30,600 nt of DNA, taken from the NCBI RefSeq assembly GCF_006345805.1, contig NW_021832616.1:1-30600 (forward strand). The letters are read 5' to 3'. Made by a program: the position numbers and the translations under genes. Below the pieces are notes generated by a model, which was not told where the DNA came from, searched no databases, and worked only from the letters and a program-made list of their open reading frames with translations. Numbering within the stretch: the first letter of the stretch is position 1; every line of letters begins with the position of its first letter. Shown one piece after another: positions 1,144 through 1,915 of the stretch. The stretch is from Octopus sinensis. Lineage: Eukaryota.

Positions 1144-1915
1144 TGACGTTAGACATGAGTTGTGTTCTGTTCACTGACGAAACCAAGGCGACCCTTCACG
1201 GACCTGACGGTTGGACAAATGGTTGAGTCTATTTTGGACGTCAACAACAGGGTGGAGGAGACTTGTGGTGGGCTGGTATCATTGGGGACAGACTTGTTGA
1301 CCCAGTCTGGCCGCCTGAAGAAGTTAAAGTGACCGCAGCCGCCTACTGCAATCTCTTGGATCCCTGGCTAGATGACACACTGCTGTCACTTCTAAGGAAT
1401 CTCGTATTCATGCATGACAACGCTCCCTGCCCCTCTACCAAGACCACCCAGACATTACTAGGGTCTTACGGTATACAAGGTGAAAGGTTGGTGGTGTGGC
1501 TGCAAGCATCTCCGAATCTCAACCTATCGAAAATCTTTGGTCCATAATTAAACAAGATGTTTACACCGATGGACGCCAATTTACGTCAAAAGATGACTTT
1601 TGGGCGACCACCAAAGCTGCAGCAGAGGCAGTCCAACCTGCTATTATTAGGCGAAATGCTTAGCTGTATTTCGTCTGCCATTACGTTCTGAGTTCAAATT
1701 TCGCCGAGTCGACTTTGCCTTTCATCCTTTCGGGGTCGATAAATAAAGTACCAGTTTCACACTGGGGTCGATGTAATCGACTTAATCCCTTTGTTTGTTC
1801 CCTCTGTGTTTAGCCCCTTGTGAGTAGTAAAGAAATATATTATTAAGAAATTGACAGATTCCATGGCTAATAGGATTTTTTAAGTTACCCGTCGATATGA
1901 CGCTCATGTGGTTAA
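1144..1915 (+). pseudogene. Tc1-family DD34E transposase remnant (frameshifted, split by a SINE)
   Basis: Motifs VLFTDETKATLHGPDGW, WAGIIGD, FMHDNAP and SPNLN-PIENLWSIIK (across a frameshift). Continues as IIKKLTDSMANRIF after the SINE. Confidence 0.85.
1650..1837 (+). mobile_element. SINE S1, 5'-truncated, tail type beta (Tx1-like tail), inserted in the Tc1 transposase
   Basis: B-box GAGTTCAAATT; TSD TATTATTA at 1642-1649 and 1838-1845; tail TTCCCTCTGTGTTTAGCCCCTTGTGAGTAGTAAAGAAATA. Confidence 0.9.

Follow-up and report, generated by a model that had tools for sequence, protein, structure and literature searches.

Which long interspersed element (LINE) supplied the 3′ end of the short interspersed element (SINE) S1-beta, and does the reverse transcriptase (RT) of that LINE copy it? 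The question is raised by a 30,600-nucleotide (nt) stretch of the Octopus sinensis genome (2.72 Gb), hereafter the window, which holds an S1-beta copy at 1650..1837 on the plus strand and four L1/Tx1-like LINE copies within 14758-29240. An initial annotation had proposed that the SINE tail is homologous to the 3′ ends of these Tx1-like elements. By sequence comparison, the tail-donor lineage is identified as F5, a related family, and the window LINEs would be its cousins. We consider it probable that F5, a low-copy L1/Tx1-like element, donated the S1-beta tail and that its RT copies S1-beta via a predicted hairpin.

The 1650..1837 copy is 5′-truncated, without about 30 nt of its head, and is nested in a Tc1/mariner-like relic, with an 8-nt duplication on its two sides (1642-1649 and 1838-1845). 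Its LINE-derived tail (1792..1837, plus strand) is composed of a T/G-C-rich stretch, a hairpin, an AATAAA-like motif and a fixed end without poly(A). The hairpin (1813..1825, plus strand), predicted from sequence and folds, has a 4-bp stem and a CTTGT loop, with one stem change at position 1823 in this copy. An exact search located the tail strings quoted in the initial annotation at 1794-1837 on the plus strand and at approximately 4638-4681 and 4822-4857 on the minus strand. The last two had been taken as separate copies, but they are the two units of one tandem S1-beta dimer (4638..5040, minus strand) and not independent insertions; a full unit (4822-5040) is followed by a unit that restarts at S1 nt 47 (4638-4821). 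When compared with the window LINEs named B, C and D, the 1837 copy aligns without gaps over 42 nt at the very 3′ end of both elements, with 76-79% identity and scores of 37-39; shuffling never gave as high a score, either in 300 trials with 600-nt 3′ regions or in 2000 with 60-nt ends. Only 20 nt align with LINE A (score 30, reached by 1 of 2000 shuffles). For the decayed 4638 unit, the match to B is marginal (2 of 300 shuffles) and that to A is at chance level. The proposed homology holds, the 1837 copy exceeding all shuffles against B, C and D.

Five related L1/Tx1-like families were found, whose targets are (TATC)n for the GATA elements, (ATT)n, (TC)n, another SINE or, in the case of F5, varied sites. 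F5, with its subgroups F5a and F5b, matches the SINE best. For 102 SINE tails scored against 60-nt LINE ends, the median scores are 44 for F5b, 42 for F5a, 40 for GATA-B, 34 for GATA-C/D, 31 for the SINE-targeting family, 28 for GATA-A, 24 for TC and 21 for ATT, while shuffled ends give means near 14 and a maximum of 31. The best median score belongs to F5a/F5b for 89 tails, to GATA-B for seven, to the SINE-targeting family for three, to GATA-C/D for two and to TC for one. The tail of the 1837 copy scores 53 against the F5b copy L376, and the S1-beta copy L147 is identical to L376 in 44 of 47 columns, with three 1-nt gaps and zero substitutions. Ranked by a profile of the SINE tails, the planted controls come out as F5b (E 3e-10), F5a (1e-8) and GATA-B (2e-6). 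Below E 0.1, the profile matched only three other places in 1.19 Mb of SINE-masked DNA: a missed SINE, a GATA-family end and an orphan tail. The profile thus found no end of another LINE clade in that DNA, without an individual check of the 3′ ends of the six or more distant RT fragments present there, and the possibility raised in the initial annotation that a non-Tx1 LINE might match better gained nothing from this search. Contigs of two public DNA runs placed on L376 give the same picture: their depth is hundreds-fold higher on the last ~41 nt only, and the loose ends of the contigs piled there continue as S1 body.

F5 was found through two weak matches. The tail is present in 29 of 30 F5a loci, and F5b comprises 19 plus 4 loci. 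Both subgroups carry the hairpin of the SINE, and their flanks are varied rather than microsatellite-targeted, in line with the alternative in the initial annotation that the partner might be a relative with different or relaxed targeting. A full-length 5-kb F5b copy (L355:768-5785, in G000:C28:2959300-2965300) encodes a 445-residue open reading frame (ORF) 1 product with a zf-CCHC domain, and a broken ORF2 with RVT_1 and zf-RVT. This copy follows immediately on another F5b copy and has an 8-nt duplication; its site is in the antisense strand of a second SINE, S2. An exact 34-nt pattern of the F5a-type tail has 185 matches in the genome, many of them in 1.78-kb tandem units. The unit read at L379 (G000:C3:72158250-72160250) is repeated head to tail and contains a broken ORF1, no ORF2 and an F5 tail on an unrelated untranslated region (UTR); matches at 1.78-kb spacing occur at several loci, of which this one unit was read. 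The 1.78-kb ORF1-only element is likely to be a second non-autonomous parasite of F5. As for age, S1-beta copies diverge pairwise by 10.5%, those of F5a by 10.7% and those of F5b by 14%, whereas the GATA-A, ATT and TC sets stand at 1.3-2.0%, the LINE sets being top matches and thus biased young. On these figures the age of F5 appears similar to, and overlapping with, that of S1-beta.

The four window LINEs are all on the minus strand, with GATA repeats between them, and each 3′ end is followed by (TATC)n. LINE D (14758..15297, 3′ end at 14758) and LINE C (21821..23230, 3′ end at 21821) are 5′-truncated, whereas LINE B (15509..21669, 3′ end at 15509) and LINE A (23398..29240, 3′ end at 23398) are full-length but broken. 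B, C and D have the homologous tail, and that of A is more diverged. B shows Pfam endonuclease, RVT_1 and zf-RVT domains, while A combines a CCHC ORF1 with an endonuclease-RT-zinc finger ORF2. The Pfam domains of the group are Exo_endo_phos, RVT_1 and zf-RVT, and the closest solved protein is human L1 ORF2p, with E 1e-49 over the whole query versus 1e-19 for R2, few LINE clades being present in the PDB. With an apurinic/apyrimidinic-type (APE) endonuclease and an RT nearest to L1 ORF2p, the group belongs to the L1 clade in the wide sense. The zf-CCHC domain has E 5e-4 in the ORF1 of LINE A, just under the cut-off, and E 4e-5 in that of F5b, above it. A CCHC zinc knuckle, not Transposase_22, characterizes the ORF1 of the Tx1 group (PMC5203782; papers are cited here by PubMed Central number, for the part of each text that was available). 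The Tx1 assignment is thus one by features, namely ORF1 type and target specificity, the trees holding no named Tx1 reference. Among named ORF2 homologs, the nearest come from Argonauta hians, and no named Tx1 protein is among the ORF2 homologs or cluster members listed. In quick IQ-TREE trees, with Shimodaira-Hasegawa-like approximate likelihood ratio (SH-aLRT) support only, all five families and the Argonauta protein form one group (support 100); in the second tree, F5a and F5b form a clade (97) that is sister to the TC family (96). LINE B is in neither tree, and LINE C is absent from the second.

Target choice in the sister families is close to invariant. TATC lies 3′ of the copy at 30/30 GATA-B loci (at least two units in 28), (ATT)n is found at all 29 ATT loci having the tail, and (TC)n at 30/30 TC loci, three of which are one duplicated locus. 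The SINE-targeting family (L275-L304) occupies one fixed site within S2 at 30/30 loci, and one copy shows a duplication of 18 nt. The families specific to microsatellites form a radiation (window 14758-29240, L031-L123 and L245-L274). The ATT family was reached from a database relative, and the TC, SINE-targeting and F5 families from evenly spaced sampling and the weak end of one match list; a protein search with the window ORF2 end returned its own family only. An orphan tail followed by (ATC)n (L131:7863-7895) and a second tail-like end (L131:4736-4773) hint at further families.

Across the genome, S1-beta was sampled in 119 evenly spaced 10-kb stretches (1.19 Mb). It has the general traits of a SINE, being short (~230 nt), non-coding, dispersed, high-copy and associated with target-site duplications. 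The 102 tailed units in the sample, which represent 74 insertions, extrapolate to ~230,000 units genome-wide, or ~1.7% of the DNA, and copies differ from the per-column commonest letter by a median of 6.0%. A target duplication was seen in 35 of 61 near-full insertions (median 16 nt); in a stricter set, 47 of 114 insertions with TA runs excluded and 29 top-hit loci included, the median is 15 nt. The 3′ flank of the 61 near-full insertions is free of microsatellites in 56 and (TA)n in five, and none of the 61 lies in GATA, ATT or TC repeats, so that what the initial annotation had noted for the window, SINE copies outside GATA repeats, holds for the genome-wide sample. Duplications of S1-beta and F5 are alike in length (~8-25 nt), the nine F5 duplications that were read by eye measuring 8-19 nt. 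For reference, the commonest duplication length is 13-15 nt in the L1 clade and 10-12 nt in RTE (PMC6007223).

S1-beta is one of four S1 subfamilies (beta, alpha-1, alpha-2 and alpha-3) that have one body and different tails. Among 271 S1 body matches, 103 are beta, 45 alpha-3, 41 alpha-1 and 17 alpha-2, and 65 have no assigned tail. S1-beta is the youngest by body identity to one beta copy, a measure that favors beta by construction, the medians rising from 77% in alpha-3 through 80% and 85% to 90% in beta. This gradient agrees with successive tail changes, of which beta was the last. Since S1-beta is youngest and the subfamilies share a body but have distinct tails, the beta tail was likely swapped in from F5. 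The direction of transfer would be from LINE to SINE, because homologous tails are spread over the LINE group and the beta tail is missing from older S1 copies. S1 copies in the window are at 307, 1650, 3147, 4638-5040 and 12720. The first is an older copy with an alpha-1 tail (307..446, plus strand), its body shared with S1-beta and its tail different, and the last an older fragment with an alpha-2-type tail (12720..12847, minus strand). All alpha tails show a hairpin with a CTTGT loop, its stem reversed relative to the ATT family. ATT repeats are present at the 5′ flank in 13 of 21 alpha-1 copies versus a background of 2.6%. No LINE with an alpha-type tail was found in the 1 Mb sampled, no genome-wide search having been made.

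Folding predicts a small hairpin in the SINE and in most of the LINE families, with stems or loops that differ by family; the ATT family shares the CTTGT loop with the SINE. In 11 of 21 pairwise 3′ UTR comparisons between the LINEs, the best-matching local segment lies entirely within the final 60 nt of the two sequences. Together with the F5 tail on the ORF1-only element, this conservation suggests that the tail acts as a signal in cis. Of the three sites that commonly vary in SINE tails, two preserve the predicted stem (G-C/G-U and U-A/U-G). Poly(A) tracts are found at the ends of neither SINE nor LINE copies, and the SINE ends where F5 ends.

How might F5 act on S1-beta? By analogy with L2 elements, in which ORF2p binds the cognate stem-loop, stringent recognition of S1-beta by F5 ORF2p is the most likely reading. 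Template switching or recombination would have given the F5 tail to an older S1, and S1 RNA would be transcribed by RNA polymerase III from two motifs in the S1 head that we take, by eye, to be A- and B-box-like. F5 ORF2p would then bind the hairpin, nick the target and begin complementary DNA synthesis a few bases past the AATAAA-like motif, without poly(A). The last bases of read-through S1 RNA may pair with the target. This last step is suggested by the insertion sites, since the three main SINE site classes equal what stands next to its own tail where units are in tandem or flanked by TA. In the stricter set, 31 of 47 duplications start with D-R-W-A-W, mainly GGTAT, AGAAA and TATAT (a hand count, for a pattern defined post hoc). 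Furthermore, 40 of 102 S1-beta tails join directly to another S1 unit, which restarts at nt 47 (31 cases) or nt 14 (nine), and at these two points the S1 body reads GGTAT and AGAAA, respectively. Read-through pairing would explain both the duplication starts and the tandem arrays. A nuclease preference that also strikes S1 itself would give the same site pattern as RNA pairing.

Several observations weigh against the role proposed for F5. Only two of nine F5 duplications start with D-R-W-A-W, as opposed to the 31 of 47 SINE sites. Flanks recur among F5 copies (8 of 29 F5a loci, and groups of three in F5b), so F5 may prefer certain repeats, a bias that is not obvious in the SINE. About 25 nt of the SINE immediately 5′ of the shared 45 nt are unmatched by any F5 subfamily and are nearer to the SINE-targeting family, which means that a relative of F5, either extinct or outside the sample, may have been the actual donor. 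Moreover, the survey of families is non-exhaustive, consisting of best matches only of genome searches. Covariation gives the hairpin no support either: a pair count in an 11-row alignment found zero two-sided changes, with 80.6% of positions paired versus 82.3% in shuffled controls. Finally, Rfam gave no transfer RNA (tRNA) in the S1 head and ARAGORN did so only when relaxed (0/8 heads by default, 3/8 at an 80% threshold and 7/8 at 70%). The head of L028, like other full heads, folds as a single long hairpin instead of a cloverleaf, with ~60 nt between the A- and B-box-like motifs, and the reference S1 copy has no run of four T.

If F5 gave the tail but recognition is loose across the clade, the commoner sisters (GATA, ATT, TC and SINE-targeting) could have done much of the copying, with the site set by pairing between RNA and target. 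The tails of all sisters are homologous, one of them has the very loop of the SINE, and F5 is rare, its 185 exact tails, many in ORF1-only arrays, comparing with ~230,000 SINE units. The one SINE-targeting-family duplication beginning with AAGTA is also close to the SINE sites. These sisters are, however, near-fixed on their targets in the counts given above, whereas S1-beta was never found in those microsatellites among 61 insertions; in addition, stems or loops vary by family, and in L2 elements swapped loops block mobilization (PMC4176376). We therefore regard clade-wide recognition as unlikely.

Could the tail instead be a passive relic of one capture, the SINE being spread by RTE, CR1, L2, Dong or a machinery that ignores tails? 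Octopus genomes are rich in RTE, CR1 and Dong (PMC13282606, PMC8967140), and F5 sites fit the SINE bias poorly, as the two of nine above indicate. Yet S1-beta stops at the F5 end without poly(A) or a simple-repeat tail, the subfamily bearing the beta tail is the youngest, and no other LINE end was matched in the 1.19 Mb with its six or more loci with distant RT fragments. Nor is the RTE signature of PMC6007223, a T-stretch ten bases upstream, marked at SINE sites, where the T frequency ten bases 5′ of the duplications is 0.38-0.40 in AT-rich DNA. Such passive carriage is quite improbable.

That the GATA-targeting elements of the window are themselves the partner, as their 42-nt match to the 1837 copy and the seven of 102 tails best matched by GATA-B might suggest, is very improbable, since F5 matches far better, the GATA hairpin is different and GATA repeats received none of the 61 SINE insertions. 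A GATA- or ATT-type 3′ UTR carrying the SINE hairpin was also sought: the GATA-type patterns gave two, one and one matches, all of them SINE copies or one mutated GATA copy, and the ATT-type patterns likewise gave only SINE copies or one mutated LINE. A likeness due to chance, or to low-complexity ends that converged around a polyadenylation-like signal, can practically be dismissed even for a short, T/G-rich tail with an AATAAA-like motif, because no shuffle scores above 31 whereas the F5 medians are 42-44, and 47 columns show zero substitutions.

That SINEs borrow LINE tails is already known; new here is a probable animal L1/Tx1-like driver with a tail-sharing SINE. The eel UnaSINE/UnaL2 and zebrafish ZfL2 systems (PMC4176376) resemble S1-beta in that the SINE ends in a short copy of a LINE 3′ end with a predicted stem-loop, and sister LINEs differ in stem or loop. 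However, among the 58 tail-sharing SINE/LINE pairs of Ohshima 2012/2013, only three have L1-clade tails (PMC3472496, PMC3747384), and the animal partners in the table rows consulted are of L2/CR1 type or of the I clade, in contrast to the L1/Tx1-like partner of S1-beta, which ends after an AATAAA-like motif without a terminal simple repeat. The three, ZmSINE2 and ZmSINE3 with LINE1-1_ZM in maize/sorghum and SINEX-3_CR with L1-1_CR in Chlamydomonas, have an L1-clade partner, a conserved 3′ end of 45-80 nt and a hairpin, and were read as stringent (PMC3472496). These plant and algal pairs end in poly(T) or poly(A), whereas S1-beta is an animal SINE whose partner stands within a radiation of target-specific families. 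A Tx1-group partner, Tx1-Mar, has also been given to the crocodilian SINEU (Kojima 2015, PMC4494074), but SINEU has small nuclear RNA heads and poly(A), its partner was assigned by target preference and that study found no LINE resembling the 3′ half of SINEU-1, while S1-beta is linked to its partner by a shared tail with a predicted hairpin. Kibi in (TC)n, Koshi in (TTC)n, Xenopus Tx1 in a DNA transposon and Tx1-Mar (PMC4494074) are like the group here in having a CCHC ORF1 and an endonuclease-RT, with sisters that switch repeat targets; the targets here are (TATC)n, (ATT)n, (TC)n and a SINE, and the likeness to named Tx1 families is by features, not by tree. Finally, MetaSINEs (PMC4824008; Kojima 2018, PMC5786205) are like S1 in joining one head or body to successive tails, by template switching to a new partner LINE. 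S1 differs from them in its four tail types of graded age in one genome and in the identification of the newest donor.

The S1 body may resemble the Meta domain, the 66-bp segment behind the head in MetaSINEs. Motifs of the S1 body were not found in two supplementary sets of PMC4824008. The available text of PMC8967140, PMC4758252, PMC10294476, PMC3531059, PMC5203782, PMC6007223 and PMC3787270 contains no such pair, and of the 900 recently active SINE families annotated for Octopus vulgaris in 2026, 893 are unclassified, with no partners named in the text available (PMC13282606). We found no published report of a tail-sharing SINE with an animal L1/Tx1-like LINE, although Repbase Reports, SINEBase, Ohshima and Okada 1994 and the supplements of PMC13282606 could hold one.

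A broader picture can be drawn, to which we would give slightly less than an even chance. S1-beta and F5 would be the first case in animals of an L1/Tx1-group LINE that recognizes RNA stringently, by a hairpin, and shares its tail with a SINE; they would be part of a cephalopod radiation whose 3′ hairpin and target co-vary by family. A rare driver, with hundreds to low thousands of copies, would have spread a SINE to ~2% of the genome, its targets partly set by the 3′ end of read-through RNA, and the older S1 tails would record earlier partner switches in the same group. It is an open question whether the L1 clade at first read tails stringently and relaxed to poly(A) afterwards; the case has been argued from only three pairs, all plant/algal (PMC3472496). 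With an animal pair among five sisters that differ in hairpin and target, swaps of tails or endonucleases become direct tests. The pair also provides a likely driver for a major SINE of the genome, in which a tail switch would precede the youngest expansion.

As for the rest of the window, two relics of DNA transposons with terminal inverted repeats, Tc1/mariner-like by eye, are found at 482-2094 and 5123-5908, the first of which encloses the SINE at 1650-1837. A tRNA-like sequence lies between two SINE copies at 7561-7635 on the minus strand (Rfam RF00005, 40 bits). Two further SINE-like families are present in several copies each, one at 6312-6694, 11665-12040 and 30360-30600, the other at 7056-8109 and 12258-12661.
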